NCBI GenBank assembly: GCA_051362555.1
Contig: CM120640.1
Span: 5,022,001 to 5,086,000, forward strand
Origin: Lingula anatina
Taxonomy: Eukaryota > Animalia > Brachiopoda
Length of the DNA stretch: 64,000 nt
Direction: 5' to 3'
The notes under the pieces were generated by a model. That model had not been told where the DNA came from and made no database searches. It saw nothing but the letters and a program-made list of their open reading frames with translations. Shown here piece by piece: positions 6,852 through 55,969 of this stretch. The number at the start of each line of letters is the position of its first letter. Position 1 is the stretch's first letter. Made by a program: the position numbers and the translations under genes.

Positions 6852-6967
6852 TGAATTAGGACACCTATCTGGAATCCAAAAGTCGCCTCAATTCCGTGTA
6901 GGGTATCCGAGGAAATCTTTGCAAAATTTTTTGTGCGTGGGGGACATATGTGTACGTGTGGTTCACC

Positions 6968-7738
6968 ATGTCCAGTTTGATCATAAAAGGTGATTTTCAG
7001 TGCAGGAACAATACGTTGGTGCTGAGGGACACAGGGCTGTTGTTACCATTAAACTGCTCGTGTTTAGTTCAAAGGTCATGTAATACTGGTAAAGTCTGGA
7101 ACATAGTAAACAGCAAGGCGAACAGCAAGGGCGAACTAGACCCAGAAGGCGCCATGACGTATATAGTTATTGTTGTTGCATTTTATGCGCTTGCGTTGGT
7201 GCTTGTCATGGTAAAACTGATGAAAGGTAACAGGGCTTTGGACAACGCCGACGAGGAGAAAGAACTGAAAATGTTCATTAAGAAACGCCAGCTGGCGAAA
7301 CTACAGACTGCAAGTCCCGTGGGACCTGACATCAGAAAGGGCCTTGTTGAAGCAGCGCAGAGTATGAAGTTTGAATTCCCCATGGGTTTGGCAAACATTT
7401 CACCACGGTCCAGTGTATCCTCAATGGGGGCGGGTAGCGGGAATACCTCTCCATCACAGTCCCTTGGCTTACCGTCGCCAATTGAGCGCAGGTCCCCAGT
7501 GTTAAGCCGTATGTACTCCGTAGACATCCCCTCTATACAGCCAAATAATTCCTCAGTACTCTCTCTCACTGATCCCAAGATGACGTATAAGCGGATGTCG
7601 TCACTGGACGCGCCGTCGCCATTTGTTGAGAGAAAACGGAAACAGTCGACGATATCTGTCCCCGAGGTGATAGTGACAGGGCCAGAGGAATCTGAGAACG
7701 TGTTCTGCTCGGAGAGGGACAAATGTCTACCACCTTAA
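6968..7738 (+). CDS. 256-aa single-pass membrane protein (KCNE-like TM helix, long Ser-rich cytoplasmic tail), single coding exon
   Basis: Long ORF in AT-rich DNA with start context ACCATG at 6968. One hydrophobic segment YIVIVVAFYALALVLVMV followed by KLMK, N-terminal sequons NNT and NCS, no signal peptide, AATAAA at 8415. Confidence 0.8.
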   Translation: MSSLIIKGDFQCRNNTLVLRDTGLLLPLNCSCLVQRSCNTGKVWNIVNSKANSKGELDPEGAMTYIVIVVAFYALALVLVMVKLMKGNRALDNADEEKELKMFIKKRQLAKLQTASPVGPDIRKGLVEAAQSMKFEFPMGLANISPRSSVSSMGAGSGNTSPSQSLGLPSPIERRSPVLSRMYSVDIPSIQPNNSSVLSLTDPKMTYKRMSSLDAPSPFVERKRKQSTISVPEVIVTGPEESENVFCSERDKCLPP

Positions 7739-9377: not shown

Positions 9378-9412
9378 CACGTCACACCACGTGCTTACGG
9401 TGACTTTATAAG
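9378..9412 (+). promoter_or_regulatory. Putative proximal promoter of the secreted repeat-peptide gene (CRE-like CACGTCA, E-box CACGTG, TATA-like TTATAAG)
   Basis: Motifs cluster about 90-120 bp upstream of the ATG at 9499. Confidence 0.45.
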
Positions 9413-9498: not shown

Positions 9499-11403
9499 AT
9501 GAACACATTTGTTGTTGCGTTAGTTATAGCTGTAGTTGGAACTGAAGCTGCTTCCCTCAATGGGCAAAGTGAGTAGTACCTGCAGTATTGTCTTCTTCGG
9601 TAGTAGGGACAACAAGTTGTGGGAAAAGAAAGGTCCTTTCTGACGATAATTTGCTTTTAATTTTGAAATATTTAGAGAAAAATTAAAGAATTATTCTGTT
9701 TAAAAATGAAACTAATATTGACATTGGTGAGCATAAAATGACTTACATGAAAATGTGTCAAATTAACTCGAAAAGGCGCTCAGTACTCATTTCGGTGGAG
9801 TATTTTATGCCAAGATTTCGCCACCTCTGCCTTTGAGTACTAACATTAATTATGTGAAATTGACATCCAGGCGGCTGTTTATATGACGGCAAAATATACG
9901 CAAAGGGAGCAGAGATAAGATTTGGGAATTGTTTGGGTGCCATGACTTGCGATGGCGACAACAGTTACTCCAATCTGGTCCAATGGGGGTAAGTTAAAAC
10001 CAAATATTTTATTTTGGTCTGATGGGGCAAGTCAATTTTCTTCAATGAAACTCTGCAATATGTTATAGTTATACGCATACATGTACATGCAGAAAATATT
10101 TAAATTAAGTAAAAGTTATGTAAATGGTTAATGAGTCCAAAGTTTTTCTGAATTTTTTAACGGACTGGAAATCATTTCAGGTCGACTCCTTCGTTGTAAT
10201 TATTAGTATTGACTTGGAAAGATCTATTTCAGTGGAATCTGCCCAGAAAAGGACAGCAAAAGAGAGAACAAAAGTGAGTACGAATTTCTTTCCTACTCGG
10301 TATTCTGATCTCAAACACCATCCAGGCGTGCATGTACTTTATAATATAATTTATGTCGTTACATTTAACCAGGTCCCAATCTTCATAATACTTGTAACTT
10401 AACTTTAAATTCCAGATGGCTGTTGGTTTGATGGCAAAGAGTATGCCAAGGGAGAGCAGATAGTTTTCGGCAATTGCCTGGGCGCAATGACGTGCGATGG
10501 AGACAATAGTTATTCAAACTTGGTCCAGTGGGGGTGGGTGAAGATGTTACGTTTAGTCACAGATCAGAAATGCCTCTTAATCATATATCTTCTACAGTGG
10601 ATAACTATATGTGCTTATTTGTAAACAATGAATTGAGAATCAAGTGTTTTTTTATACACCGTATATCAACTTGTTAACATGCAAATGTTAACTTCTACTG
10701 TATATATTAATCATAGCAGCACGTTAGAAAAGTATACCGTAGCTACCATCTATATTTCATTATATTTGATGACCTTAACATATTTAAATGAAGCAAACTT
10801 TTGTTTTGATATATTCAACTTGATTCACAAAATTGTATTATATTCTATATGTATTTATCTTGTGTTTCAAAAAACGTCTTTGTTAACATTTGTATGTTTA
10901 TCTCACGTTTTGCAAACTGTTTTTAATACTGTTACTGTTACATGTGTACAGGAACGTCTGCCCTAATAAAGATAGCAAGAGAGAAAGCATGGGTGAGTAT
11001 CATAATCTCTACTTTCATTCCTTTCATCCCCTTGGTTGTTTGTCGGTCTTAACACACCTCCTGCGTAATTACTGATCAAATGTCATCAAAAACAACTTGA
11101 AAGTCATCTTTTTTAAACTTTCAGATGGATGCTATTTCGATGGAAAAATGTACGCGAAAGGAGAACAAATAAGGTTTGGAAACTGTCTAGGTGCAATGAC
11201 TTGTGATGGCAACAACAGCTATTCAAACTTAGTCCAATGGGGGTAGGTGCCACTTTTAATATAATTTTAAAATATTAATAAATCTAAAAATAGCTTTAAT
11301 GTAAAGAACATATTTTGAAAATAATGTATGTCGACATGAGTGAAATGTTCATTCTAAACTTATCATTTATATTTTCTCTAGGAATGTTTGTCCCGGCAAC
11401 TAA
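9499..11403 (+). CDS. Secreted 175-aa precursor with three tandem 4-Cys (VWC/SVWC-like) modules separated by KR sites; exons 9499-9568, 9871-9988, 10233-10273, 10416-10533, 10952-10992, 11125-11242, 11382-11403
   Basis: All junctions are GT-AG with compatible phases (528 nt total). Translation: MNTFVVALVIAVVGTEAASLNGQSGCLYDGKIYAKGAEIRFGNCLGAMTCDGDNSYSNLVQWGGICPEKDSKRENKNGCWFDGKEYAKGEQIVFGNCLGAMTCDGDNSYSNLVQWGNVCPNKDSKRESMDGCYFDGKMYAKGEQIRFGNCLGAMTCDGNNSYSNLVQWGNVCPGN*. Signal peptide at the N-terminus, AATAAA at 11489. Confidence 0.92.
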
Positions 11404-11793
11404 CAATGAAGACCAAAGGGATCACTAACAAGAGTCAAATTTTACATTACATTAAAAAGTGATGTATTGAGATTTATATAATTTTTGTAATAAAAAGCGA
11501 AAGTTTACATGACACTTTTGTTTTATGATAATCTTTTCAATATATTTATTAAAACCAAACATTAACAAATGTTGCATTTGTGGTCATATAAAATTACTTC
11601 TCAATGAAATGTGAAGGAAAACAGTAAACACAATCCAATCGCACTGGATAATATACGTACAGTACATGTAAATGTGCCAATAATGTAACTCCAGTGTGTC
11701 CATATAATAAGCATGACGTTCAATAATGTAAAAAGGGAATAGTATGCTAGCCGGTATAAATGAAAACCACCAAGTAAAAACAAGGCGCAAAAA

Positions 11794-14700
11794 TCACCAT
11801 AAAAGACAACAATACTTCTTAAATTGTTTTCCCATATCCTCTTCCAGATTTGGAGGTGGTTTCTGAGAACGTGTAAAGTTTAAGAAAAGTTGCTGTAAAT
11901 TAGATTTATATATCACAAAACTTTCAATGCAAAACCTGCCCCTCAATCGTTCCATGATGCAGAATAGTTTGGCAACAGGAATAGAAGTGTCCGTGACCAC
12001 GTAGTATAAAACATCCTGGTAAGCGTTCTTTAATACAGCTCCTGGTATTGAAGCTTCCAAACTGGCCATGAGCGGCTGCACTTCGGGTTTGCCTCCCTTG
12101 CTTGGGTATCGGATTCGTACGAGAATTGTGTACGTGTTGCAGAATTTGTTGCGCAGGTGCTCTATGCTGCCTAAACATGCCAGTCTTCCGTTGATCATGA
12201 TCGCCATTTTGGTACACAGGGCCTCGCATTCTTCAATGCTGTTGGAAAAAGCAATCCAATCAGAGTATTCTATACTTACTTCACTCTCATAATCAAACGT
12301 TAAACATAAAAAATGGAGCTACATTTCGCCCATAAAATAAGGCTTTCAGGTTCCTATTTTCTAACAAAATTTAAATGAAATGAAACAAGGAAACATCTTT
12401 TACAATCAAATATCGATTTGGTCAGCTGAACACGATATTTCAATTACCTATTGGAGAATATTACGATAGTCCTCCCGCGGGCATGGATCTCTTGTAGAAT
12501 AGCCCACACTCTTTGACGGCTATCTGCGTCCATTCCCGAGAGAGGATCGTCCAAAAACACCACTTCCGAATCCCCCATCAGAGATATGGCGACGCTCAGC
12601 TTTCGTTTGGCGCATAAACTGAAATACGTTTTTATATGTGTGTACTTGTATGGTGGATGGTTTTATGATACAATTCCCATGTGTGACACAATTTTAGCAA
12701 TACGTATTTAACTAAGCACTTGTAGCACACCCAGAGGTAAAGGGGCGATCAAAATAAGTTATCCGCGAGATTAAGTTGACATTATGGAGTACATCTTCTT
12801 CATATAGTACCTGTATTTGCATATCTTCTTATGTAGGCAATCCTCAATGTTCAGAGTTCTTCCCATGGCGCCGATCACTTTGGTAATGTGCTCTTTGTCA
12901 ATGCCCCAAAGCTGGCCTAATAGCTTCAACACCTCGCCGCCTGTTAGATGACCAGGGACAACGTCGTTTTGGGGACAGTACCCGATGCGCTGTGGTACCT
13001 ATTTTGATCATTTGGAAATTATATTCAAAAAAATTATTAAAAAATATAAAAGGCCATAGCACATAACTTTTATATAAAGCGACCATGATAACTGAAACTT
13101 TTGGGAATGATTATAAAAACATGTTGAAGTTTAAGTCCAGCAAATTTTCTTGAAATTTGATGGACATTTATAGGATTTAATAAAATTTTCATTTTTTTTT
13201 TTTTTTTGGGGGGGGGGGGGGGGGCACCCTGAATAAAAGACGCTAGCATGACTGGCATAGCGTACAGTCTTTACAGAGATAAACTGAACATGCTTACTTT
13301 GCCAATAGACCGTCGTAGATTGCGTCCTCTCAGATACACGTCTCCGGCTGAGGGTCGTAATGCACCCGTCATCAGTTTCAGGAGAGTGGACTTCCCTGCC
13401 CCGTGCGCGCCAATAAGTCCAAATATTTCACCTATTAACGAATTCCTGTAGATTAATATACGAAATGGCACTTGTTAGAATGAATCAAATGCTAACAAAC
13501 AATTTAATTTTTTTATCTCGTCAGCTGCGTGTTTAACAGAGTCCTAGCGCGTTACAGTACCTGGATATTCTCAAACTCAGAAACCTTTACGGGATACTGA
13601 ACGTGGCTATAGTTCCATAATTTAATCTACTGGCATCATCTTACCTTTGGGCACGCTAAGACTCACGTGGTCTATGGACACAAACTCATTGTGCTCCTTA
13701 CAGACCCTGTGTAGTGACACCGCCTGCATTTGGCGCAACTGATACTCTGGGGTTTCCGTCAGCCGTTGCTCCTCCAACGTGACATCATTATCCTCCGGCA
13801 CGGAAACTTTCAAGTCCTGTTCACGAAAGAGCATAGGGTATATGTTTTTATCTGAGGAAGAGAGTAGTCCTCTATAGAAGCGATACAGCATGCCGCTCTC
13901 CGAAAGAGCCAGCAGGACGAAGTAGAACGCAGCCTGTATGAGGAGGAAGACGAGGATCCGTCCGATCCCTAGTGCATATATACTCACGGGGTTGCTCTGG
14001 TAGGCTTTGCAGGCATCGTCACAGAAACCTGTAGTAACAAAGTGATCGTGATGTCAGTATGCAAATGAAAAACGGGCTATAAGCATAATTTCGGCTACCG
14101 GTTATGTATTGGAACGATGTACATGTAGGCCTACATACATAATTGCCGCAATTCAGGAATTGCTGATAAAACAAACTTTGGCATTCACAACGCAAACTCT
14201 TTAAGTTTCCCCAATAACAAATATACAATGAATGTGATCATGAAAAAAGATATAAATCAAAAAGTCCTAAAATGAATCCGTTTTGAATCACTGTGTAGCT
14301 GTATAATATGTACTAAATTCCATACTGAAATGTTAGAAAGACTCAAGTAAAAGCTGTCTACAAACCGTGACAGCATACAAAATCAGCCATATGTAAAACG
14401 TCTTGGCAATCTAGTTTGATGTTGTAGTTGACATAAAGTTCCAGAAGCCCCTCTCCTAGGCAGTACTGTGGAAACAGGGCCAGGAAGAGCCAATCCAAGA
14501 CCTCGCCGATCAGTCTTTGGTCAACGGACTCCGATGTTCGCAAAAATATGACAGTTGTTAAAGAGCCAATTCCTGAAAGGAAACCAATCTGAATAATTTT
14601 AATTATTAAAACAAATAGTATCCACACGCTAAACGTTAGGATAAATAGATATATCCCAACTGAAAAGAGATTAAAAGGTCAGTATACAAAATCAGACCCG

Positions 14701-17700
14701 TCGCTAGCTGCGCCCTTAAATGTGACGTTTTAAATGAAAAGTATTGGTCATCAAATTCACATTACATAGCCATAGACTAACCTACGATGAGATTGAGGAA
14801 GACCAGCGTTGCCACTACCCTGACTGATGTCTCCACGGACAGTGACAGGCAGTACATCAACGGAATTACAGCAAGGCCGTGAAAGAGCATCAGTAGCAAT
14901 AACCCGATGAGCTGGTAGTCGGCAAAATATGCATCAACTTGGAAGGCAAGGATTGTCAAAACCATCAGAAAGCAAAGTCCCATATAGATGATCAGATCCC
15001 ACAAAAAGTTTCCTAGCCAAAATGTCAAAGGTCGGGCGCCATTAATGAACTGAAGATGCTTAAAACCGGAGATGTTTTCTTGCTCGACCGGACTTGTGAG
15101 AACGCCCAAGAATATAGCCATACCGGAGACTATGATCACTGCAACAGTGTAAGCAATTTCGAGTTGTTCTTGATATTTTTGCTCAACAGATAGAGGCAGG
15201 GGGTGATTGATCACCTCGATAGAATGGTTTTCGGGTGACATCGTTCTTAGTAACGCATTTGTCAGAAAGTTAATGGAAATTGGTCTGCTGTGGTACGCTT
15301 CGCCCCCGTAATAAGCCGTTACCAGTTCCACTTTTTCCATTTCTTTCGAGTAAGAGGTAGTGTTACCAACAAGACCAAATGCTGCACCTGCTATATAATG
15401 TCTGTTGTAGTCTGGGATGCCAACTTGCTCGACTTCTTGCAAAATGGCGGAGTCAATGTCAAGGTCAGTGTAATCTAACATGAAACTACTAAAGTTCACT
15501 AAGCTCATGCCGCGTTCTTGGATCTCTCTTGAGTACACATGACCAAAAGTGTCTATACCAGTGGTAGCGTTGGGAGCAACAACGGCCACAACCTTGGCGT
15601 GCTTGCTCATGGTCTCCATGCCAACGTTTAACGGTTCGTAGTTGTGGATGTCCCTGTTGACAACATGTACGGAGAGTGCGATGGCAAGGACCAATAACGG
15701 TACCAGAATATGACAAATTGTGAACACAGGGTTTCGTTGTGAATATAAAAACCTCTTCATAAAGAGACTTTCCACTTGCTGAACGAAGAGTGCAGTTCCA
15801 CTTTCACGTATGCTTCCTTCTGGAAGCACCAACGCTTAAAAGGTGAAAAAGTATGTCTTGAAGACAAGTTGCATAGATTTATAAGTACATCGACTCTAGT
15901 CAAATCTATGAAAAATCCAAAAATTATGAAGGATAGAAAATGAAAATATAAAACAACGCCAGCATAAGACGATTGCTATATACACACTCCTACTACTAGT
16001 ATGTATTCTTATTTGGCGTATTCGTATTTATGCAGTAGACCCACTTTATCGTTATACCATTAATTCCCCACGTTTAAACAGTACAATACAGTATGTCATG
16101 TACAATGCATTCAATACAATAACAATGCTGCCTTAAAACTAAGCTTTCATAATATCTTACTCAAGGGCTGTTTCCCAAGATCCTGAAGAGGAATGGCTTC
16201 TTTTTCGTGTCCTTCAAGAATAACGTGTTCTGAGTCATTCTGTTCCGATGGTTTCAGGGATGACGTGGACAGATAGGACGAGTAGGACGGGTCAGACTTG
16301 AAGAGATCAGGACCACCTTCGGCAAGCCTGGGAATAGTTACGTGGGAAACAGGTAGAAAGAAAACTGACAATATATAGCCTCATATTTACGTCAACAGTT
16401 TGTAACTCTTCTCTTTTGCAACTTTACTGAGCGGTTGAAATTGTTGATGAGTAATATAATAACAATACCGGACGTAAAAAAAACAAAGTAACAACTGACA
16501 ACACCGTGAGTATTTACTCATCAGTTGAGAATATTAATGTAATCAAGACAACTTTAAGACCAATGGAAAACAGGTCATAACTTCACCATCGTACGATCAT
16601 AATTCGAGATGGAAGACCTTTACCTCTCATACACTTCTTCCATTGTGTTCATCCCTACATCATATGTGCCAACTCCTAAGGAAGGTTTGTGGTCATCAAG
16701 GTCTTGAAACAATGCTTCAAATTTACCATTATCTTTCGGTATAAGAAACGTTGCCCGCGTCGGTGACTCACACTTAAGATGCGAATTAGGAACATGTGAT
16801 TTGATTAGCGACGACGTATCTTCTATACGACACTGGATGTCTTTGCTGACCTGTATTTGGTAACCGATTCCTGGAAAATTAAATTCAACTTAAGAGACCT
16901 CTGAGTAAGGAACAAAATATGTCATGATTTGGAACACGTTAAAGAATACAAGTATAAGCTACATGTATGAATACAATTGCATACTATTTCCTAATTCGAT
17001 TTATAGTGCAACAGGTTCTACGTCCTGGAGGGAACAATATTTTCCTCCAAACCAGGCAAGTTTTAATGGCATGAAAGGGATTTAGTACAGACATCAAACT
17101 AACCGTAGCAATTGTTAATAAAGTCTGCACTTCCGCAACAACGGACTCGCCCACCCATCATGAAGGCGATTCTGTCCCCCAGGGCCTCCGCCTCCTCAAT
17201 ATCATCAGTGGCAATGATGATGGTGCGGCCGTGCTTGGCGCTTCTGAGGACGTCCCAGGCCTTTCTTCTTTCGCACGGATCCAGACCCGTGGTGAAGTGG
17301 TCCAATATTAAAAACTGCAATCATGATTTTCAGGTAATTGATGGAAAATAAATGTACAGTAGCACTGGCATTAGAAGTGAAATTATCAAAGTACAGTCCC
17401 AAACATCATAAATTTGATACAATCGTTTCCAATTGCCACATCACGGTAAAGAGAACCGTGTTTTAAAATCGCAAAGGTACTCTGTGCGAATTCTATGTAG
17501 AAAGCTTCATGTTTTATGCATAAATTCGTTTTAAGAATCTCGCGGGCCCTATAGCCTACAATTACATTATTTGCTAATTAAAACCCTTATCGGCTTCTGG
17601 CGCTTGTATCAAATCTCTAGCGAGTCTCGTGTATATCATCAGCTGCCAGCACTGCATCATACCTTGCTATCACCAAGAAGAGCAACAGCCATGCATAATC

Positions 17701-17963
17701 TCCTTTTCAGAGAATCGGGGAGTTTGCTGGCCTTGGTATTGCGTTCTGGTGCCAAATTGAGCAAAATCATCCATCTCTCTGCCTCGGCAACTATCTGTTT
17801 CTTTGGTAATCCTTTTAACTGAACGAAAAAAATGTATGTCTGATTTTAAAGAAAAGTTCGTAATGATACCAGAGACCAGCGACTGAACTTGATGTTAAAG
17901 ACTAAGCTCTTTTCATTGGACATAATTTCAAGTAATCAAGAGCATACTATTTACTGGAGGTAT

Positions 17964-17997
<34 letters not shown>

Positions 17998-20900
17998 CCT
18001 TGGTAAACAATTTCATGTGTTCCCATACTGTCATATCGTCAAACAACACGTTCTTTTGTGGACAGAAGCCAAGCTTTGGACGTATGGCGTTCATGTTCTT
18101 TGTGACGTCATATTTCTCGAAAATAGCACTGCCAGAACTTGGCTGCATTCTTCCTGCAACGGGGATAAAATAAGTGGATTAATTTCATACTTATATTTCA
18201 TTAACGCCCGAACTTGTAATATTAGGTTGATAAATAATTCAACATGGACCTGTGTTCTTGCAGTGACGTATACAATTGCTTTGTTGTTTGATAAACTGTG
18301 GAACTGCATATCTTGCAACATTCAGCTATGCCTATGAAGAGTTTGCATAATACTTCTTACGCTGATTTTAAATACATGTAATTTCACATGTCAATAAAAC
18401 ATTTACGCCTGTATTGACTACTGCAGAATTCATAGTATAACAGTACCAGTTAAGAATGTTAAGATTCACTTGTTGGCAGTATTAATCTTGGCAGTCCTGT
18501 CGGCAAAAGATCATACTCACCAGTGATTATAGAAAGAAGTATCGATTTCCCTGCCTTGGCTTTGCCATACAGTACAAAGATTTCGTTAGCGTATATTGTA
18601 ATATTCACTCCGGAAAGGGCCGCCTTCTTCCCAAAATTCTAAAATATTAAATATAAAAACCAGTCAGGGATGAAAAAAATTTCATTTAAAAATTTGATGT
18701 GTACAATATAGATACAGCTTGAAATTTTTTTCTTCAAACCCCAATTAAAGTGAAATAAAACTATTTACATAAATCAGTTGTGGAAAATGCTTAGTATGAT
18801 TCTTTTGTCTTTTGTCGTAAAGATACATGTAGGGGTACAATGTCTAACTGTGTTTTTTTTTGTTGTTGTTACAGTAAATTACTCCGTAACTTAGTAAATT
18901 CAGTACAACTCATCTTTCTTTAAAAGCAAGGTATTTTGACTCATCTACCTTGGTGAGCTTTTTTATGACTATTTCTGGAACTTGTTCCTCAGCCACATCT
19001 TCAAAGAATTGCGACTCTTTCTCCGTGATCATATAGTCTGTTGCTCTTGCACTGTCTTTGCCACTTGGGTCACTTCGCCAATATGTAACCTGGATTGACA
19101 TAGAGCATAATCATAATCATAATCATTTCAACTCACCACGCTGAAGTTATGACAATACCCTGAGGTATCCAAAAGGATCATTTTAAACAACCGCGACTCT
19201 ATTGGATTATGCGTAATGGGAATAAAAATTTATGCAAGATGACATATTTCAGCGGAAAATCGACCCCAGCCTGGAGACCTGCCTTGGAAATTGCCCAGAA
19301 ATTAGCTTAGGTCGTCAATAAGGTTTTTCCAAGAAAAATACTGCATACATAATTCCATATATTAACTAATTAAGGCCATGGCCCTGCCATAAATCATTGT
19401 TTGACACGTCACAAAATATTGGGTCTACGTACCGTAAATGGGAAATACCAAGGGTGAGCCCTGCCGTAGGGGCCTGGTGTGACCTCACCCAGGTACCACG
19501 TGACCACTATTAAGATCAAACTATCCACCAGGAACATCAGCATCACGTGCAGGAGGGTGAAATTGTCATCTTCTACCGCCGGCTTGTAGAAATTCGTCCA
19601 GTCCGCACCCTCGCCTAAAATTATCTCCTGATTAAAGCCAGTTATATCTTTCTTCTTTCCATCTATACTTTGTATTTGATCTTAATTTTGTCTACTTCTT
19701 TGTTTTCGTACTAATGCATTTTATTACTATGATAAGTTTTGTATTTTTGTCTTTCATTTTCTATTTGAAAACTATACAATAATTTGAAAACAATAAATGA
19801 ATATATTCCTTTGCATAATATGAACTTTACACTTTACAAGCAAATGTGGCAATAAAACTTCATTTAAATACATATACATGGGTCATGACCATGGGCACGC
19901 CCTGAGCCATATGGGGTCAACAAACTCAAAGTGTCACAAGTGTCCTTAGTTCTTACCAGCTGCTTCGTGCAATCCAATTATTTTGGTTCCAAAGGCAAGA
20001 GCAATATTAGGTAGCAAGCATGCAGCGAACTTCTCAGTTGTCGTCATGGTGTCATAACTGCGAGCATGCTCAATATAGATGTACGGGACATAGGTCAGCA
20101 GGAAGACAATGCTTGTGATGATGGCGGCCACATCGGCTGAAAATACCATTATAAAATCAATACACAAATTTTTATAATTCATATTCTATAATCTTAAAAT
20201 GGGACCCGATGTGCAGAACTCTCCTAATTTCATCAGTCACACAGGATTTGATAATCATCCTTTCTACGCATATAGGCTACTAGCAGGTGCAAAAGTAATA
20301 AAAGTAAGGAGCATTACGATATCAATAAGAATTCAATTAGGTCGAAACGTTCTCAAACGAGTTCACATCCCACAATAACAAGTTTTATTCTGAAAATGAT
20401 AAGAGACCTTAGTCTAAATGCACTTTTCACAAAGTGCCAATTGGCATTATTTGATAAAACTATTGCGCTTAATACAGTTCCCAAACACATTAAGCGCTTG
20501 TGACACTCTTGACAATGACTGCGTACTAAGAGCGTTCTGAAAGATAGGTAAGGCATTATTCAAAACACGTTCCTTCCACATCGCGCAACTCAATTATTAT
20601 ATGAGCGCACAAATAAGCACGCATGTAAAGCATGTCATTAAAAAGTCCATTACCTTTCTGAAAAAAAGCACTGGCGGCAAAACAAAACCAGGTGGTTGCT
20701 ATGCCATACAGTACCAACAGCAGGTAAGTTAAGATACCGGAGGTTTTGGTCAGAATACTAACATCCCCTGCGTCCAGCTTGAAGAGAGCAGTCAATATAC
20801 CCATTATGATGGCGTAATAGACGAAATCCTTGATGAACCAGGAGAGCCACTGGAGGGTAGAGCTGACACCCACCATGTTTAGGCAATCCTACAAAGGAGA

Positions 20901-23024
20901 ATGATCTGAGTAAATATCCCCATTGCAAATAAAGTCAGTGTATGGAATAATGTGGAACTCAAGTCCATGCACGAGGTAGGCAAACTGCCTTTGGCATATA
21001 AAATCATAGATCAGACCTAAAATGGAGGATAATTTAAAGAAAATATATCGATTGAAAGTAAAGCCCATATTCACGTATAATAAGATTACATAACAAATGC
21101 GAGGTATTCATACTGCCTTCATACTTTGTACATATATATATATAAACTTCAGTTAATAATTAATGTAACAAACAGCCAACTGAATATATTGCAATTAAAA
21201 TTGTAGAAAATATCTAGATTGATAAATTTTTTTCTTTCAAAATCCTGTAACTAATCGTATTTCTAAAAAATATGAATGCTTTTTTTTTTTGCTACAAAGG
21301 CCTGAGATTTAGCTAAGGAATTATTCAATCGATCTGCCGTCATCCTGGGAGAGTGGCAATTAGAATCAAACACACGCCAATGAATTCCAGAGCGAATGTG
21401 CAATTAAGAGCAGGTCAATTAAGTCATATTTATCTAATTAAACTGACCTGGAGAGATTGCAATATCCGACCTATATGATATAAGTCTTAGATCAAAGAAT
21501 ACAGTCTAGCAATTAATATCTCTGTCTAAATAGTCTTTTCCTTTGGGATTGATCGCATGATATTTCTGGCACGTCTCTTCTACAAGTAACTTAGTAATTT
21601 TCTCTACATTTTTCGATATGAACCATTTGTATTATAATTGCTGATTATTTTAATTATCCTTACCTTCAGCAATTTCTCTTTTTCGTATACCACTGCTCTG
21701 GTGATGTGAAACGTGTTGAATAATAAACTGAAGACGATGAACAGCGCTAATCGAGATTCGATCATGTTGACAAAGACGTCATGGGAATAGAAAGCATGGG
21801 GCATGCGTTTTAGGGTTGTTGTCAGGTTGGTTAAAAACGCAGTAGCGTTCTTTTGCACTGCTTCTATGATACTTATGTCCAGCGCATACTGCAGGGTAAT
21901 GAAACCAGTTTGCCAGTAGTCTGAAATAAGGTTTTGGTTATTAAAAAGAGAAAAAATGAAAAATGTATTCGACTGCATTGCAAATCTATTGTATAACATT
22001 TAGCAGGAACACAGTATTCGTAGTAAGGCTGAAGCAATAGAAGTGTATATTAAGGGTGTGGTGTGAAATGTAAGGACATCATTAAAATACTCACCTGGAG
22101 GCGAGTCTGAGGCTCTCGGTCTCAAAGTATTGACAAATGGAAAACGCTCAGTCGTCTTCCACGGTTTGTCTGCCGTCGACTTTAAACGGATCTTGTAACT
22201 TATTACTTCTGGGAACAATTTGCTTTGGTTCGACTTCCCTTCTTTTGTCAGCATGAGAAATGCAATTCCGCCGAGAATACTGCAGTTTGTGCGGTTCTGT
22301 TTTGTTACAAAGTCTAGCATTTCATCCTCAGAATTGAAAGGAATAGCTGTAAAATCATTAATTCCAATTTTTAACTTGTGAATATTACGGATCCTCTAGT
22401 TATTGTAATCTATAGCAGACTATGAGCGATGATCAGAATCTTTTGAAGATTTGCCTAAGTAATGCATTTTGTGTCGCTAATGAATTATTTGACCAAAAAA
22501 ATGACAATCAATCTTATTTCTATTATTCATAATATCGACAATGATATTTGATAACGAAAAAATGTGACTGAATTAGCTTTATATTACCTATGTTTAAAGA
22601 AACAGTGTGGCTGAGCATATTTTCAGTTGTCGCTTTTGTGAAGGCCTATGAAACTCAAGCATGTATGAAACGCGTCTGTTTGTGACTTCTCACCTGTGAT
22701 ATTTAAAGCGTGTTCAAATTTCCGAGTCACTTTGTTCATTATGTCTTCTGTTTTTCGCGTGTATGGCGTATAAGCAATAATCAATGTTTCATGCGTCTCC
22801 GAGCCGGGAAATGCATAATCCGACAGAATTGTTCCATTGTAGGTCGTGCTCTCCTTCTTTTCTATGGCAATCCCCATCCGAAGAAATAATAAAACAGCCG
22901 CAAAGAACACAGGGAAGACGATTTCAAACAGCGTCACCCAGGGTTTGCGCTTCTGAAGCAACCATATTTTCTTGAGCAGGAGCACTACCTGCGCTGGTTT
23001 TGATACACCCGTGGTTCCCTTCAT
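11794..23024 (-). CDS. Full-length ABCA-subfamily transporter (ABCA3-like), divergent paralogue with degenerate ATPase motifs; about 20 exons
   Basis: N-terminus QVVLLLKKIWLLQKRKPWVTLFEIVFP; EKEKLLK motif; NBD1 exons 18521-18638, 17663-17818, 17104-17314; large TMD2 exon about 14781-15834; NBD2 exons 13298-13431, 12811-12998, 12448-12618; terminal exon [25 protein letters not shown]. Exon structure mirrors the 40981-55131 gene. Confidence 0.93.
17964..17996. repeat. (GA)n microsatellite immediately after an ABCA splice donor
   Basis: Direct dinucleotide run. Confidence 0.9.
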
Positions 23025-26000
23025 CCTTTTAGCGGGAGCTGTACGTCCTGATGTTAGCGTTCTAGATATACCCCTGCCGTGTATTTATCTGGCGATGAGT
23101 GGGCTTTTACGGCTCTCTGCGTTCGGTAATAATGAATCAGCAAATCCTGGAGGAAGTGCATTGCAAAATCATTATGCCAACAGCAACACAGTCCTCTTAG
23201 CAGGAGTCCTGCTTTCGGAATACAAACATTGTTTAAAGTACAGTATGTATTAATCCCCAGCTCTCCAAAGAACAGATCGTCAAGCACGAGCGTTGCTACG
23301 AGCCATCGTTTTAACTAACTCTAATTGTCGATTTCACAGAGCATCATCAAACTGCAACAACCACTGAGGCAATATCATAATCGTGAACAACGCATCGTGA
23401 AATAGTCTGTGGTTTTGGTAAATGTGAGAACCCTCAAGGGTTTGTGAATTGTCAATAGTATCGACTTCTCCTTCCCCGTTGCACCTTCATAAATGCTGTT
23501 GTCAGAAAGCATTCCACGGTGAAATAAAAAACAATAGTTTTTTTTTCACTCCTGTTCCCTATGCTTCCAGTAATAGCCAGTTATTGTGCGTCACTGTCAT
23601 CAATGATAAGCTGTAGCTGTGGATTGGTTGAAACTGTCGCTGATATCCAGGTGGCATTGACTGCATAGTTCAATCCAATACAGTAAGAAATGCCACCCAA
23701 CGCTCAATGTTCCCTGTGTCTCGCAGCCTGCAGCACGGCGTAACTGTAACATTAGACAATAAATAAAATGTTCGGTGGAAGGATTCCATTAAGAAGGACT
23801 ACATCCATGCAAACTGCCTCGGCATCACTGGAATTATGTATCATCTAAACAAATGAGTTCATACAGCTTTCATAATATACACTGGGGAGAAGTTATCAGA
23901 CATGTAAGATATTTCTTGCATAATTGGTTTTTTAAATGTAAAACAGCGACCGGAAATTCACTTTAGTCACACACAGAGAGTGATAGACTGGATATTTGCA
24001 CCCAGCCTTTTCATCGTTAGAAAAACCAGCCAAACAGAAACAGGAGAGCGTGCGCTATACCCAGGGCTCGTTAAGAGCAATTCGCTATTTGATCCGTGAT
24101 ATTCCGCATCATAGAACATCATGGTGTTAACGAATCCAAAACAATTAACTGTAGATAAATGTAATTAAAGTTACTTCAATTAACAGACGCTTTACGAATC
24201 CTGCACACCACATGTGTGTCAAAATGAAAGTTTTGATTCGTCCAGTTATATTATACTAAGAAAATGAAAAAATTATTTCTGTATCATTTCACCCGAAGAA
24301 GACCTTAAGTCATAACATCATGATCTCCGTTTCAACATAGGATCCAGTATTAGATATTATTCATTGTCTTTACAAGTATGTTGTATGCGTCAATATATCA
24401 CGCGCATTTAAGACAAAGTTGTTTACAGAATATGTGCACTTTCAGCTGAATTTGAAACAGATAAAAGAAACGTGTAGGCATTAGCCATACCAGTGCATAC
24501 ATCCAGATGATGGGTACAAATGTGAAACTTTCCTCAATGTAAATAACATACTCTGAAAATTATATTGAAAAGGTTGGGAGTAATTGGACACACACAATGC
24601 AAATGGCATCGTGTACGGTAGATCCATGTATGAGTGCGTAAGGAAAAGCTGTATGCCTTGTACAGCAGTATACGAAAACTGCGCAGAATTTCAAGGTCAA
24701 ATTATGACATCTTTGACAAACTACGTATTTTTCTCATTAATAACAATTATCAATTGCAGATCGTGGGGGGGGGGGGGGGGATGGGAGGGGGTTTGTATAT
24801 ACCTGTCTCTAACGCACGCACACACATACACACACAAACGCAAGCACACACTACAGTTACAAAAAATTAAAAAATGAAAATAAAATAAGAAAAAAAATGT
24901 TCTCGTCTCGTTTCAAATAGACAAGTCTAATTGACAGCAAGTCTAGTCACCAAGAATAGCACTGATATCGATCTGCAAAGCTTATCCAGATGAATGTTGT
25001 CCTGCAGATATGTACCTTCCAAGACACAGTTTCAGATATCAACTGATTACGGATTTTGTGTTAACCTAAAACATGTGACACAGATCCTTTTTCTTTTTTG
25101 TCGGCGGAATGACATCACTTTCAGTTTGCTGCAATAGTTATGTTGCTGCTGAACAATTGCGCGCGTGTGTGCGTAAGTTAGTGCATGATTCACATTATGT
25201 AGGACGACACACGCAAACGCCTGCAGGCACACATACATACATTGGGTATGAAAATACACTCTTCAGGGCAACACCAGGTAAAACACTTGGCTGCTATACT
25301 TTGAAACAGAATATTGCAAAGTAGATAACATCGTGACTGAAAGCTCAGTACAGGAATCCTAATGGAACATCATTTTCTATGGCTTCCTAGTAATTCAGAA
25401 GATCGTTAAAATATCCAGGTGTGCACAGTTAAAGCAAGATATCTATAATTCATAAAACTATTTGTATGGATTTTTGCAGCGAATTTACACATTATAGAAT
25501 ATCCCATCCTACAGTCAAACAAGGCCAAAAGCATTAAACCGGGCCTACATCATTCCGGGCCAATCTATGTCTTTATACAAACGTCAGGTCAAGATATTTT
25601 TTCTGTACAAGGTTTATTACCCTTCTTATTCTTTGACGCACGGAATGTATGCATAGTCCGCGTGGCCTGGGTTGTTTCTAAATAAAACGAAAAATGCCTC
25701 AATTACACAGTATCTTTTATAAGTGCTTATTTTAGATTAATGTCTGTTATTTTATATAAAATTGCACTCAATATCAATACCAACGCCAAGCACGTTCGCG
25801 TGAAAAAGCCAGTTTCTGTAGTCTGCTCGACATAACCCTTCTCTCACTATTCTGGTCTACTATATGCAGAACGACGTCAGCCGATTAGCCCATGGTTCTC
25901 ATATCCAGTAATCACCACAGCAAATGCTATGTTGTTTGTTGTTGGTAAAAAATGCCTTACACATTACCTTCAAGCAGTTGGACTACTCAAACTACTTACC

Positions 26001-40980: not shown

Positions 40981-43900
40981 TCAGAAACAACAGCAGCCTC
41001 GCTTCTTCTCATGGGGCTGCCTCTGCCTACGTGCAAAATTCAGAAACACCTGCTCCAACGTTGTCTGGCTGATGGAATAATCCTCAATGCCATACACAGG
41101 TTTAGCTTTTTCCATTGTACCGAACAGATAAGCCCAGGAAAGGGAGGTGTCGGGGAGATTATACTGGACGTAACCCTGGTGGACGTCCTCCAACTCACAC
41201 GTAGGAAACGTGCTCTGGACGAATTCCATGAAAGGGTTTACATTGACAGGCCCTCCACTAGGGGGTGCTTGGATCTTAGCCAGCAAGGTGAACCCCTGGC
41301 CAAATCTGTTCTTGAGGTGCTGGACACTGCCCAGGCACATGAACTGCCCATTGACCATGATGGCCAGACGTGTGCACAGGGCCTCGCATTCCTCCATGCT
41401 GTAATAAACAGATAGACAACTGTGGATGAGACTTGCCTCTCATAAGTCTGTTATCAATTGCAGTCAAAATTCATCATATTTAATTTCATAGGGTTGGGTA
41501 AAACATGGTTAAAAATGGGACAAGTGAATCGTAAATTTTAAGATGTAAACACCCTGTGAACATGACTGTAATTGTTTTTAACTGACAATACTATTGTTAA
41601 CTTTCATTCAGAATTTTCAAAGTTTAACATGATTATAAGTGCCTGTGGCTGTGACCAGACTGACCTGTGTGATGTGAGTACCAAGGTGGTACCACTCACT
41701 CTCACTTTCATCAGTGTATCCCACAGTTTCCTCCTGGCTGCTGGGTCCAGGCCAGTGGATGGTTCATCCAGGAACACCACAGGAGGGTCACCAATCAGAG
41801 CCAGGGCCGTGCTCAGCTTTCTTTTGTTACCACCACTTAAACACAAACATAAAACTTGATTTAAAATCACAGGCAAGTAAATATCTACATACACACACAC
41901 ACTATAAATCTACTGTAAATGAAACCTGTAAATGAAAAAAAGTGCAAAATATATTACAAGTACAGTACTGAGAAATGATGAAAAAATATGTGAGAACTGT
42001 GCAGAAATATTTTAAGCCTGCAGCGCCCGGACACGGAAATAAAAGAGTGGAACTACACATACGAGCCTGATGTCCACACCAGTGATACATCTGTTCTCTT
42101 GGATCAAGAGGAGGTTGCTGACACCAAAGACAAGAACAAGGTGACATTTGTGAAGATTCAGTATTGAGGAAAGAGCCAATATCAAAGACACAAGCACTGT
42201 GACAGATGCTGAGGGCATTGTAGAAAGAGGTAAGACAGTTGATATCAAAGACACAAACACTGTGACAGATGCTGAGGGCATTGTCAAAAGAGGGAAGACA
42301 GTCAATAACAAAGACACAAACTATGACAGAGGGCATGGAGGAGAGAGTTTCCAAGGTCCACCGCCCATCATGCTGGAAAAGTGTTTAACCTGTTGACATC
42401 TTACTTCAGGTGCAGGTCAAGCACATAATTGGATCCTCACTGCAGATCTAGCCTATCGATACTTAATCCGCTCTACAGTAGGTGTACAATTCAATGGATC
42501 CCTTTCACCAGAAAGATACCAGTACAGATAAAATTGAAGAATTTCAAAGACAGGTAGCACATTTCATAACTGGTAATTATGCTGATAGAAAACAGGGTTG
42601 TGCCTCCAAAATGTTAAAAGACCTAGGCCTAACCCCTTTATGTGACAGGTCAGATGTAAAGAACACAGATCTATATTCTTCTACAAAATGATTGAAGGTC
42701 TCATGCCATCAATGTGTCACCAGAAATACCTGACCAAAATCCATGGTAGTAAACATAGAGTCAAAGTCAAGGACTTTTCTGCATATGACTCAGACAATCT
42801 GGCTGACAACTATGCAAAAATAATGGCAGTTGTTTCCATTCACTACAAGACAAGACAGAAATTTACAGGAACTTCTTTAGACTGAAGCCACCTAGGGGAC
42901 AGGGTAGTTTGTTCATAGTGTATCGACTCTTTTAGAGCAGCAATACTAAGACTAAACACCCTTCACAATTACGCCTTGCTAGCCCTGTGATGTAAATCAA
43001 TTTGGATTTTTTTTTAACCTCAGACTAGTACTGAAAAGTATACAGTGCTCTAATAATTCGATCATGCTCCTGTATAAAACATGACCAACTTATCTCAATT
43101 TGATTCAATAGATTTAATTTAGGTTTTATGCCAGCTTGATATGTAGACCTGAAAATGAAGAAGCTGACCTGAAGCTCAGGGTAGTCAACTATGTAGTTCT
43201 ACATGACTGAGCCTAGTAAAATTCTACAGAGGCAATCAAGTACCTGTAAGTTCCACACTGCTTGTCTGCATGCTCCTCTATGAGCAGAGCTTTGAGGATG
43301 TCATCAACCACCCTGGATATTTCTGTCGAGGAAATACCACGGAGCCTAGCAAAGAATACCAGCAGCTCTCTGGCTGTCATCTGCTCAATCAGGGCATCAA
43401 ACTGGGGACAATAGCCTATCATCTGTCTCACCTTAAATAAAAAGCAACAAAAATATTTTCTTCTCTAGAATAGAGAAAACATTCAACTAAATGAGCAATA
43501 CAAAAATAAACATAATGAAGCAGGCATTTATAATGATGTCACTTTCTTAGAAAAAGAGTAATTTTGAACCATGCCATTTTCCATGAATTCATGATGGTGC
43601 TAGCCTTATGTATAACTACTACAATGGGACAATGATGCTAACATGGCCCTCTGATATGAAGAACAGGCTGAATCTGTGACCAGTGTTATTTGGTATACAA
43701 CCTGATCCTTGTCTCAGTCAATGCCATGTGGGAGAAGGGAGGCATAGTTCAAACATCAGAAATCACTCTTACCTTATCAGCCTGTTCCCTTATTCCATAA
43801 TGTCCTATGAGTGCATTGCCAGAGGAAGGGAGAAGGTCCCCAGTCAACATCTTGAAGGTTGTAGTCTTCCCTGCTCCATTCACACCCAGAAGACCAAATA

Positions 43901-46900
43901 GTTCACCTGATAAAATTATAAAATGTTGCAACAGTATTTCAGAATCTGTGTTTAAACTATTTGGTTGATGTATGCAAGGAGCAAAGAGCTGCTTGACAAA
44001 TTTAGTTCTACTTTAGTGACATTAATACGAAGTTGCCTGATGTCCAAGATAAAGGAAACAAGGCCATTCTGTCAAGGGGAATAACTGTCAGATCTTGTTG
44101 TGGTTATACTATAACATGCAATGGGTAAGGTGTTTTCACTAAGTCTAGATGTAAATATAATTACCTGTTACCATGCTACATCCTTTGATATAAATGAGCA
44201 AAAAACTGCTATTTTGCTGAATTCAGAATCTGTTTTTGTTTCTTAAATTAAAACTTCTGCTTTAAAACATTACTATGATATTTGCAATGGGAATTATTGC
44301 TATTGTCAAAGAAGAAGCAGTAAAATATCCACACACCTTTCGGTATACCTAAACTGAGATGGTCAACAGCTAGCATATTCTTATAATATTTGGTCAACTT
44401 CTTCAGCACCAGAACATCATTCTCACAGGCTATTTCTTGCTGAACTCTCCCCTGTTCTGTTAAAACATCCTGATCTACAGCCTCCCCAGACTGGACGAGG
44501 TCCCCATTGGCCACCCGGGCTGACTGCCTTCTGTATACAGTGTTACTGATGATCTCAGACTCCAGCAGGGCCAGGATGAGGAAGTAGAATACCCACTGTA
44601 CCACCAGGAATATCACCATACGTCCGATTCCAGGGGCAGGCCATGCAAGGTAGTTCTCTTCATACTTCAAACAATTGTCTCCACAGTTATCTAGAAAAAT
44701 ATAATACGTAATCAGAATAGCTGTACCTCCCCTGGGATACTTTTTGATGAAAACATTTCTTTAGTAGTTGTGGATGATCCCCAAATAGGCCATTGCTTGG
44801 GTCATATGATCACCAGGGACGTGAGATCCTTTCAGGATCCAACAGACCCATAAAGGCAGATCTTGCTTTATATCAAAGATATCAGTCTACAGATCCAACC
44901 TTTACTTTTATCAAAAACACCAAATACCTTAATATCCTCAATTTAGCACAATGAAGTAATAAATACACTGAAGATAAATAAGAGAGCTCATCATAAACAT
45001 TACATATATGTACAGATGCATGTGGTGTCTTATTATTAGTTGCTAAGAGTGCAATTCAATAATCATTACATTAATTTAATTTATGCCACTTATTTCATAA
45101 TACCTCACTCTCAGAAATTTTAGAACACTTGGTGCCTAAATTACCTTTGCAACAGGGATTACCAATTCCAAGGTCACACAAGTCCTGTACCTTGGTGTCT
45201 GTGCACAGTTTGATGTTCTGGTAATTATTATACATGTCCTGCAGGCCCTTGCCCAGGTTGTAGTTTGGAGCCAGGACAATGAATATCCAATCCAGGACAA
45301 CAGCTATAGGCCTGGTGTTTGTGTTGGTATCTGGGTCATGGAGGGCGTCCAGGAGGTACACTGTCAGCGTGGCAGTTAGACCTGAGATAAGTTTGAGGTA
45401 AAAAGAATATGATAATGGCTACTTCATAACCCGTACAAATAAATGCCAAAACCTAGGCTCTATTCCCATAGATTTTAGATCGATCTATCCTCGCGGGGAG
45501 TCTCACTAGATTACTTTCAGATAATCCGACTTAAATGTCCGTCCCGCCTACTACAAGCTGTAAGGTGGTAATTAACTTTCGTGTCCGCCCTGCTGACAGC
45601 TATTTAGCGTGAACCCCCAGGGAGTTAGGTCGATCTAAAGTAGGTCGATCTAATCTATGGAAATGGGGTGCTAGAGACACTGCAAGAACACATTAGGACA
45701 TCAAAGGAATATTAATTCACAGATTCAAAAAATTATTAAGAACAGCATAGAAGACAGTTTAAAGTTTTGTCTATCAACAAACATTTGTTCACTTATGCTA
45801 AAGAAAAATCAATATGAAATCATATTAAAATTCAAAATACATTATAAACATCAATGCATAAAAACCAACAAAATGTCAATACCTAAAAGAATGTTGGTAA
45901 AGGTCAACAGAGTTGAAGCAGTCACTGGCGTCTTGAAGAAGAATGACAATAAATACATTAATGGTAGCATGCCAAATGGAAACAGTAGCAACAAGAGAGC
46001 AACAAAGCCCAGACGTCCACCCTGTGAGTATGCCTCTGGTTGGAATGCAGCAAATACTATGATAATCAGTGCAAACACAATTGCGTAATTGATGAGATCC
46101 CAAATGAAGGTGGACAACCAAAATGTCACAAGGCGTCCTCCGCTGACTATCTGCAGGTGCTTGGCATTGTTGTCCCTCTCCCTGACGAGGAACACCACAA
46201 AACTGCTGGCCAGGTAGGACATCCCAAACAGTATGCACAGCTGGATCAAGAAGCCAAACAACATGCTGGAGTTGCTCTGCAACTCTCTCTTGAAATCGGA
46301 GGGAAAGGGCAATGGGTGGTTAGTGACTTCAATGCTGAAGGACTCATTGACAAAATATCTCAATAGGGTATTGGTGACCAGGTTTACAGCTATAGGAGAG
46401 TTATGTAGAGGCTGTCCATTGCTATGAGCTATGATTTCCTTCACTGCTGATGAGGTATTGGTATCAAAGGAGGCTGCTGCAATGAAATACTTGTTGTAGT
46501 TTGCAATACCAAGTCTATCAGCTTCTTGAAGTAGGTAACTTTCCACATCACCAGAACCATTAGCAGAGGCAGCATTGACATCCTGAACTTGTGTATTGCT
46601 TGGCATTTTCAGACCATATTTCTGGCTTATGTTGCTCAGCACCACGTCCCCTGGCTGGTACCCTGCGGCAATATAATTGGGATCACTGCCAAACATCTCA
46701 GTATTCATCTTGAGGGCTGGGTAGTCACTCTGTGTGCTGGCGGGGATCAGGTCCAGCGCCAGTGCCAGCATGGTGAAAATGGCTGGCACCAGTAACTGCG
46801 CCAGTGTCACCACTCTGTTGCGCCAGGTGTGCAGAGCTCTCTTCACGAGCATGGCATACAGCTGCTGGAGGTGGAGTTTTAGGCCAGAGTTTTTCTTCAA

Positions 46901-54443: not shown

Positions 54444-54479
<36 letters not shown>

Positions 54480-55131: not shown

Positions 55132-55969
55132 GTTGCGTTTTCTGTGGTTACTGCAATGCCTACAATACTTCTATAAATCAGTTTGGTTCATGCAGGTCTT
55201 TATTGTGAACCTGAAAAAGAAAAGATGCATGTACCGTATTTGCTTCTGTACTTCAAACAATTCTGCCTACTACTGCCTAATACGTGGTACGTGTCATCAA
55301 AATTATATTCCCCACAAACAAAAGGTGTAAAATGCACAATCTGAAATATTCTAGATTCTCACATTCATATGTGCTACTTTGCCTTTGGAAGAGGCACCAT
55401 TTCTCCTTAATTTAATTTTATCAGTGAATCGTAAGTCTGAGGCATGTACAAAAACAATAAAGAAATGATTTAGGCTTTATACATTAGTTTAGCTGAAATA
55501 AATAACTATAGTCTACCCTAGCTCCCTTAAGGGTGGGGTTGTGGAAGGATCTAAATGTCTTAAAGATACAATCATGCAACACGTGATGAATGTGATTTAT
55601 TTATTTATTTGATATGGCATGCCCCCTCCCCCAATAAATAATAAATAATTTATCTTTGGTTTTCAGTGTTTTTCCAAATTCATTTGTGTGATTACATTAA
55701 TCAATGTCTCTGCTCTTCAACTAAATTAGTTTGACAATCCCCTTAATACTTCTTCGGTGTTTTAAAAAGAAAATTTCAGCCCTTTCAAATACTGTACAAA
55801 ATGAAACCTGAGGTACATGTACATGTTATTTGAGTGGGTCTACAGACGAGAGTTTCAGCAAAAAGAAAAAAAAGAAAGAAAAAGAAAAAAAACAGTGAGT
55901 AATTTGCAAAAGTAATTTATGACATTAGTCAAAGTCTCTGCATGAGTGAATACAGAGCCATTTTCTTAC

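Follow-up and report, generated by a model that had tools for sequence, protein, structure and literature searches.

An apparently undescribed mollusc-brachiopod family of putative convertase-cut polyproteins built on a minimal VWC/FnI-like module

Introduction

Fibronectin type I (FnI) modules have a C-x-C in the middle and pair their cysteines 1-3 and 2-4, and tandem FnI and VWC modules usually work as uncut arrays. The sequences KR and K-x-x-R are prohormone convertase sites. Many toxins and antimicrobial peptides are small and disulfide-bonded and come from multi-copy precursors, and DUF1496 consists of small bacterial proteins without known function.

Several systems of cysteine-rich modules have been described, and are summarised here from the accessible parts of the sources cited. 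The pacifastin domain follows the pattern C1-x9..12-C2-N-x-C3-x-C4-x2..3-G-x3..6-C5-T-x3-C6 (PMC2689174), and its reactive loop, C5-x-P1-P1'-x-C6, carries the specificity residue at P1 (PMC13388995, section 6). The VWC domain has ten cysteines and the SVWC domain eight; proteins of the SVWC type serve as recognition receptors to which bacteria are bound, and granularin is, according to a title cited in the same source, a molluscan single-VWC opsonin (PMC11515477). Proteins with dibasic linkers are removed from the ScrepYard collection as processed (PMC9885460).

The window analysed here is the whole 64-kb stretch of Lingula anatina DNA in which a preliminary description had placed a hidden micro-exon gene for a secreted precursor of three KR-separated four-cysteine peptides. 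The Lingula gene was already known as an uncharacterised model. What is new is the family to which it belongs, which extends across bivalves and gastropods and whose exon borders recur in two metagenome contigs.

Results and discussion

Structure of the gene

Splice reconstruction from the ATG at 9499 gave seven coding exons (528 nt, 175 aa) with a single stop, at the end (Table 1). The six introns, of 132-418 nt, are all GT-AG and have phases 1,2,1,2,1,2, giving a single open frame, and the six-junction model first drawn, with its signal-like start and three modules, was reproduced exactly. The 12 cysteines form three modules separated by spacers of 12 residues, and both the spacing of each module, Cys-17-Cys-5-Cys-15-Cys, and the KR linkers were exact on re-computation; apart from the KR at residues 72 and 125, the protein contains no dibasic pair. 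Exon 1 encodes a hydrophobic, signal-peptide-like N-terminus (about 18 residues by hydropathy) and the N-G-Q-S tail of module 1. The exon sizes of 22-118 nt given earlier are right as numbers, but for the last exon 22 nt counts coding sequence alone, and the true micro-exons are the two of 41 nt. With a module profile, the 118-nt exons scored E 1e-19 to 1e-21, and no further module copy was found in the window below E 0.6.

Table 1. Positions of the features assigned to the three-module gene within the window.
Feature	Position	Strand	Remarks
Putative TATA-like box	9407..9411	+	motif scan; about 90 nt 5' of the ATG
Exon 1, coding part, 70 nt	9499..9568	+	phase-1 end; as in RefSeq XP_013413223.1
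Exon 2, 118 nt	9871..9988	+	core of module 1, Cys1-Cys3
Exon 3, 41 nt	10233..10273	+	module 1 Cys4, KR linker (10258-10263), start of peptide 2
Exon 4, 118 nt	10416..10533	+	core of module 2
Exon 5, 41 nt	10952..10992	+	module 2 Cys4, KR linker (10977-10982), start of peptide 3
Exon 6, 118 nt	11125..11242	+	core of module 3; intact splice sites; absent from the RefSeq model
Exon 7, coding part, 22 nt	11382..11403	+	module 3 Cys4 and stop
Candidate polyadenylation signals	11451..11494	+	motif scan; ATTAAA 11451, AATAAA 11489

The window also contains two multi-exon genes for ABCA-subfamily transporters (matches to ABC2_membrane_3 and R1_ABCA1) on the minus strand, at 11794-23084 and 40981-55170, the first of which ends tail-to-tail with the peptide gene. 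A FAM110 C-terminal domain protein (E 7e-17) is encoded on the minus strand at 58473-59690. On the plus strand, 6902-7738 forms a single long ORF of 278 codons between stops. Its product has a single hydrophobic stretch and a tail rich in Ser and Pro, and no Pfam match above the cut-off was found for it.

Annotation and RNA reads

The gene is hidden only in the sense that it is absent from the ORF track, as a search with exon 6 matched RefSeq XP_013413223.1 (Lingula anatina LOC106175667), in which it is annotated as an 'uncharacterized' two-module protein of 144 residues. This model, identical at 143 of the 144 residues, consists of exons 1-5 and exon 7 and gives independent backing to introns 1-4 and to the two outer splice sites in the region of exons 5-7. 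Codon 41, in exon 2, encodes Phe in the window and Ile in RefSeq, so that the window carries this gene in a different allele or assembly. In the RefSeq model exon 6 is skipped, which shifts the frame of exon 7 and moves its stop to 11428. The sequence favours the three-module form: the splice sites of exon 6 are intact and its dN is just as low (0.08-0.09 against exons 2 and 4), and in the three-module frame the first four codons of exon 7 (N-V-C-P) match those of exon 5 apart from silent third-position changes. The public Lingula model appears to lack the third module.

Four of nine same-species RNA runs were mapped, at 6-30% of each, and no spliced read was found for the six junctions proposed in the preliminary description. 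Runs X1 and X7 yielded zero reads, so the result is that of X4 and X9, whose reads included no splice junction of the peptide gene. The organism-matched run X4 gave 30 reads, 29 of them at 99% or more; nearly all fall within 11487-11700, and their first mates map to the plus strand. One read pair lies over exon 6, runs into the introns and has the same antisense orientation as the other X4 reads. The position and orientation of these reads fit the 3' end of the minus-strand ABCA-like gene, the 3' reads of which reach at least 11487, and X4 thus represents the minus strand only. Run X9 gave six reads of 90-95% identity.

Age of the module duplications

Pairwise comparison of the three long exons shows changes at 19-24 of the 38 third positions, against 3-5 first and 3-5 second positions, with saturated pS (0.84-0.96) and dN of 0.08-0.10. 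The likeness among the six introns is not above that of shuffled sequences. Taken together, these values indicate old duplications and purifying selection on the protein, and bear out the initial remark that third positions vary freely in a near-constant protein. The long and short exon pair is a frame-preserving cassette in the Lingula gene; duplication of this pair would have changed the number of modules and would explain its variation among the relatives.

Relatives in bivalves and gastropods

Searches with the Lingula protein and with the alignment each returned 28 proteins at E ≤0.001, and another search returned three. Members were found in at least 13 bivalve genera (Mytilus, Crassostrea, Saccostrea, Ostrea, Pecten, Argopecten, Ylistrum, Tegillarca, Mya, Mercenaria, Mactra, Dreissena and Sinanodonta) and at least five gastropod genera (Littorina, Batillaria, Aplysia, Elysia and Plakobranchus), and the named matches included no annelid, cephalopod or nemertean and no second brachiopod. 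This range is a minimum, since genes with short exons are easily missed. All of the named relatives are 'uncharacterized' or 'hypothetical', and UniRef gives two Elysia members the automatic name 'Single domain-containing protein'. The match lists, which come from protein searches and are not genome counts, contain about one locus per species.

Complete members consist of a short hydrophobic leader and 2-4 modules, with no membrane anchor. Of 20 relatives, 15 begin with a hydrophobic N-terminus, and the models of the remaining five are truncated or fused. The 'merc' source, a catalogue that we take to derive from marine metatranscriptomes, supplied relatives that are complete multi-module proteins. 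In two metagenome contigs (L001 and L002), all six module exons (five of 118 nt, one of 115 nt) have AG and GT at the Lingula phases, and the linker exons are of 38-44 nt. A third match (L003) was rejected as a G+C-rich false match and one protein (P0024) as a chance match. Six public models (P0001, P0007, P0011, P0031, P0034 and P0039) look mis-spliced, with a skipped long or short exon, intron read-through or a fused leader, and databases containing many such models understate the regularity of the family.

Literature searches by accession, motif and concept, in which subscription journals and bioRxiv supplements were thinly covered and a proteomic mention under another identifier is possible, found no description of the family; the motif search gave one irrelevant NOTCH1 paper. 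With all relatives uncharacterised, the suspicion of an unnamed family is upheld, and the Lingula protein apparently represents a family, shared by molluscs and brachiopods and so far undescribed, of convertase-type polyproteins whose repeated unit is a minimal VWC/FnI-like module.

The cores of different genes share a mean identity of 54% (988 pairs, two phyla). Nine columns (C1, D4, G5, Y8, C19, L20, C25, G27 and C41) are invariant in all 48 cores, of which 44 carry either no net charge or a negative one. These properties bear on the possibility that the peptides are toxins or membrane-active antimicrobials, which they resemble in being small, disulfide-bonded and encoded in a multi-copy precursor. 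Such roles are highly improbable given the acidic charge, the slow evolution, the lack of any sign of gene expansion in the match lists, and the carriers, which are marine and freshwater filter feeders and grazers; furthermore, the conserved mature region is the reverse of the hypervariability described for mussel MgCRP-I in the accessible part of PMC4558851.

The Lingula cores are closest to module 1 of oysters and ark shells (63-68%), which is as close as mussel to oyster. All three Lingula modules belong to the Q-W-G type, which apart from them was met only in modules of oysters and ark shells (P0038, P0036, P0002 and P0006 were compared), and the modules of gastropods and heterodont clams are of the L-G-G type. 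Horizontal transfer from a pteriomorph bivalve is not needed, as the mollusc modules group against Lingula in a rooted tree. In this tree (unstarred, 41 columns), rooted on mucin-type repeats, all 36 mollusc modules fall on one side with support of 89, and for this reason we prefer, without regarding it as proven, a vertical descent in which the Trp-type module is ancestral.

Four of the proteins matched carry related repeats and are not family members. These (P0017, from a chiton, P0019, P0021 and P0027) are large and Thr/Pro-rich, with 3-17 four-cysteine repeats of a reduced VWC/FnI type and a spacing of about 18-23, 3-5 and 10-13; P0017 and P0027 end in a hydrophobic tail. Weaker matches, including a chiton 'kielin/chordin-like' protein, have similar four-cysteine repeats in Thr/Pro-rich spacers. 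Mucin-like repeat proteins of this kind are a plausible source of the module, and the four may possibly form a second unnamed family.

Predicted processing of the precursor

Linkers were compared in 20 proteins, one or two per genus or record, containing 40 linkers and 51 cores; this set excludes near-duplicates, two records with a single module and the linker-less Aplysia model. Arg is present in all 40 linkers (KR or RR in 29, K-x-x-R in 10, a lone R in one), and none of the 51 cores contains a dibasic pair. The Arg lies exactly seven residues before Cys1 in 35 linkers (mean 3.7, maximum 12 in 5000 shuffles) and a basic pattern is found in 39 (shuffled mean 11.5, maximum 21), although these counts represent non-independent trials, the linkers being kin by duplication and descent. 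The pattern persists between the phyla while the flanking linker residues vary. The N-terminus that would be freed is also conserved, as x-V-D/N-G-Q-T/S-G-C at a fixed distance from Cys1 (G in 38, Q in 39 and G in 39 of the 40 linkers). Lingula module 1 keeps this tail, and the tails of peptides 2 and 3 are shorter and lack the conserved G-Q.

A signal peptide predicted by hydropathy and conserved basic sites flanking conserved peptides make up a prohormone-like arrangement. The presence of Arg in every linker and the lack of dibasic pairs in the cores argue for convertase cleavage, and the precursor is probably cut into single modules, in agreement with the KR-separated secreted precursor originally proposed. 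In Lingula, a prohormone convertase would cut after both KR and a carboxypeptidase would trim the ends, releasing three acidic peptides of about 50 residues. Assuming signal cleavage after residue 18 (hydropathy), the predicted products are of 53, 51 and 49 residues, 5.3-5.6 kDa and pI 4.4-4.5.

Alternatively, the protein could be secreted whole as a multivalent tandem-repeat ligand (SCREP) in which the basic residues are incidental, as in the uncut arrays usual for FnI and VWC modules; 11 of the 40 linkers are without a strict dibasic pair. However, the Arg is fixed at a constant distance, a basic P2 or P4 accompanies it in 39 linkers and none is seen in the cores, and ScrepYard itself drops dibasic-linker proteins, which makes an uncut product quite improbable.

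Predicted fold and disulfide bonds

The AlphaFold2 model of a single module (24 aligned sequences) has five beta strands and a pLDDT of 85. In that of the two-module Lingula protein (pTM 0.37), the KR falls in a low-confidence stretch, 70-75, between two confident modules. Structures matched by the module model were FnI, the VWC domains of CCN3 and collagen IIA, the E modules of VWF and mucin, NELL2 and beta-microseminoprotein. The best matches were FnI modules (Z 4.7, rmsd 3.1 over 46), which fill the top six VIA-align rows at Z 4.0-4.7, and the beta-microseminoprotein/FnI group also gave Z 4.1 with rmsd 2.0 over 39. The CCN3 VWC domain gave TM 0.56 and rmsd 1.8 over 37 columns at 35% identity, with TM 0.5-0.6 and E > 0.1 for the CCN3, collagen IIA and VWF modules together. 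These fold scores are modest, with no Foldseek match at E < 0.001, but the top rows consistently belong to one superfamily and the weak sequence matches (CCN3; chordin, E 0.011) agree. PDB sequence searches gave only the weak CCN3 and chordin matches and one chance match to a coronavirus protease.

The VWC profile PF00093 scored 11.7 bits on the Lingula protein (cut-off 27.6) and matched weakly in 10 of 14 relatives, the best E of 1.8e-05 applying to a whole multi-module protein, and in one of 24 single modules (E 0.094). Fn1_2 scored 13-17 bits, below its cut-off of 27. DUF1496 (PF07383) reached 24.4 bits against a cut-off of 20.2 on the two-module Lingula protein, a sum over two partial stretches that spans profile positions 10-41 of 53; single exons gave 13-16 bits and four of 24 modules matched at all. 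Several relatives carry precomputed DUF7210 (PF23843) or DUF1496 matches, and DUF1496 is likely a fold cousin of the module. The module is predicted to adopt a fibronectin-type-I/VWC-like beta fold with two disulfides, and the kinship to the start of VWC domains first suspected from the motif GC.xDG..Y..G is consistent with both this fold and the weak sequence matches.

The terminal modules of five pteriomorph-type precursors (P0002, P0008, P0036, P0038 and P0040, from oyster, mussel, scallop and an ark-shell-like record) have lost Cys2 and Cys4 (C19 and C41) jointly and kept Cys1 and Cys3 (C1 and C25), probably in one event. Their paired loss points to Cys1-Cys3 and Cys2-Cys4 bonds and, with the predicted fold, favours the two-disulfide modules assumed at the outset. 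The shortened last module of these precursors is a conserved one-disulfide variant.

Because the closest folds are those of matrix and mucin modules, the modules could instead be parts of extracellular matrix, mucus or shell, or BMP/TGF-beta-binding modules of the chordin/CCN type, released or trimmed on secretion. The weak matches to chordin and the CCN3 VWC domain, the similar four-cysteine repeats of Thr/Pro-rich mucin-like proteins, the acidity of the peptides and the fact that every named carrier either is a shelled animal or belongs to a related group with a reduced shell are in line with such a role. However, cutting into monomers removes the multivalency that matrix proteins use, the family is kept in shell-less sacoglossans, and its motifs were not found in the accessible part of the Lingula genome and shell-proteome supplement (PMC4595640), which may hold no sequences. 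A matrix or growth-factor-binding role is considered improbable.

Possible functions

The proposed course of events is that the three-module protein, with its predicted signal peptide, is secreted and cut, that each peptide folds into a small two-disulfide beta sheet, as predicted, and that the released peptides would bind a conserved receptor or partner as cytokine- or hormone-like ligands. The conserved surface, the conserved N-terminal tail exposed by cleavage and the protein-binding fold point to a ligand for a conserved partner. Given cleavage, this role has about an even chance; the complete proposal of a cut, secreted precursor releasing signalling ligands, which draws on sequence and predicted models, is tentative and falls somewhat short of that. 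Of the functions listed in the preliminary description, the secreted signalling type was kept as the leading one, the toxin and antimicrobial roles fit badly with acidic, conserved peptides, and the inhibitor loop of the pacifastin type is absent.

The accessible supplements of neuropeptide catalogues and ganglion peptidomes (PMC8557429, PMC6425005, PMC8398477 and PMC5996578) and of PMC9396074 were searched and the family motifs were not found, the files of PMC8398477, PMC9396074 and PMC5996578 being small and possibly without sequence tables. This result lends no support to a neuronal origin and counts against a neuronal source. QSGamide was rejected as a relative, being an unrelated iPTH orthologue in the accessible part of PMC8557429. 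The more far-reaching idea of an ancient, overlooked mollusc-brachiopod hormone or cytokine system, in which a mucin-like surface repeat would have given rise to two-disulfide ligands of VWC/FnI fold that act on a conserved orphan receptor, is on balance doubtful. Under that idea, the system would have been missed by neuropeptide catalogues because of the frequent mis-annotation of the gene and its division into exons of 41 and 118 nt.

The peptides may also serve in innate-immune recognition or as opsonins, marking microbes or parasites for haemocytes in the manner of snail granularin or arthropod SVWC proteins. A shared structural superfamily, the activities reported for these proteins and the UniRef name of the two Elysia members agree with this role, but the modules have four cysteines and not eight, the cores evolve slowly, and the single locus or so per species in the match lists is no expanded cluster of the kind seen for housefly SVWC. 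An immune role is unlikely on this evidence.

A peptide family that has kept nine invariant positions, its exon borders and its cleavage geometry across brachiopods, oysters, mussels, scallops, clams and Aplysia probably has a basic role. Its 50-residue products are synthesisable and directly assayable, in aquaculture species and in a neurobiology model.

Comparison with known systems

Like the pacifastin precursors, the Lingula gene encodes a multi-domain secreted precursor with a signal peptide, repeated small disulfide-bonded beta domains and dibasic sites between them, and two exons contribute to each domain, as they do in Trichoplax (accessible parts of PMC2689174 and PMC13388995). The Cys1-Cys3 and Cys2-Cys4 bonds suggested here would correspond to pacifastin Cys1-Cys4 and Cys2-Cys6. 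On account of this shared plan, the peptides could be serine-protease inhibitors, and the pacifastin cluster ranked second by features in the ESM Atlas for the Dreissena relative (score 0.75); the Dreissena protein gave leads only, and no usable feature match was found there for the Lingula protein. However, the modules have four cysteines with the spacing 17-5-15 in place of six, no C-N-x-C motif and no equivalent of the Cys3-Cys5 pair, and all 48 cores have Leu in place of the invariant Asn after Cys2. The equivalents of P1 and P1' are Gly in 36 and 44 of the 48 cores, a Gly-Gly in place of a variable specificity residue, there is no Cys at the C5 position, and the N-terminal hairpin is longer. 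No Pacifastin (PF05375) match was found among 24 modules at E ≤1. Protease inhibition is very improbable. The matches listed in four fold searches included no pacifastin chain.

The modules resemble the N-terminal subdomain of VWC (PF00093) in being secreted and in the start C-x-F-D-G-x-x-Y-x-x-G. They differ from VWC, SVWC, Vago and granularin in having four cysteines, in contrast to ten (VWC) or eight (SVWC), and no C-x-C, and from VWC in being made, without a second subdomain, as a polyprotein with basic linkers. FnI modules gave the best fold matches for the predicted model, at modest scores, and likewise have four cysteines and a sheet of 2+3 strands, but the Lingula modules have C-x5-C, and FnI modules stay in large uncut proteins.

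Multi-MgCRP-I of Mytilus and neuropeptide or prohormone precursors are likewise secreted, with KR sites and 2-4 cysteine-rich modules. Multi-MgCRP-I differs in its C-C-CC-C-C array and its cationic, hypervariable peptides, in being restricted to Mytilus and in having its modules in one exon (accessible part of PMC4558851); neither that array nor a hypervariable cationic mature peptide was found in the Lingula peptides or their family. Beside the insect pacifastins, the family described here is a second, apparently independent case of a VWC-related module in a cleavable polyprotein, and the smallest version of the fold.
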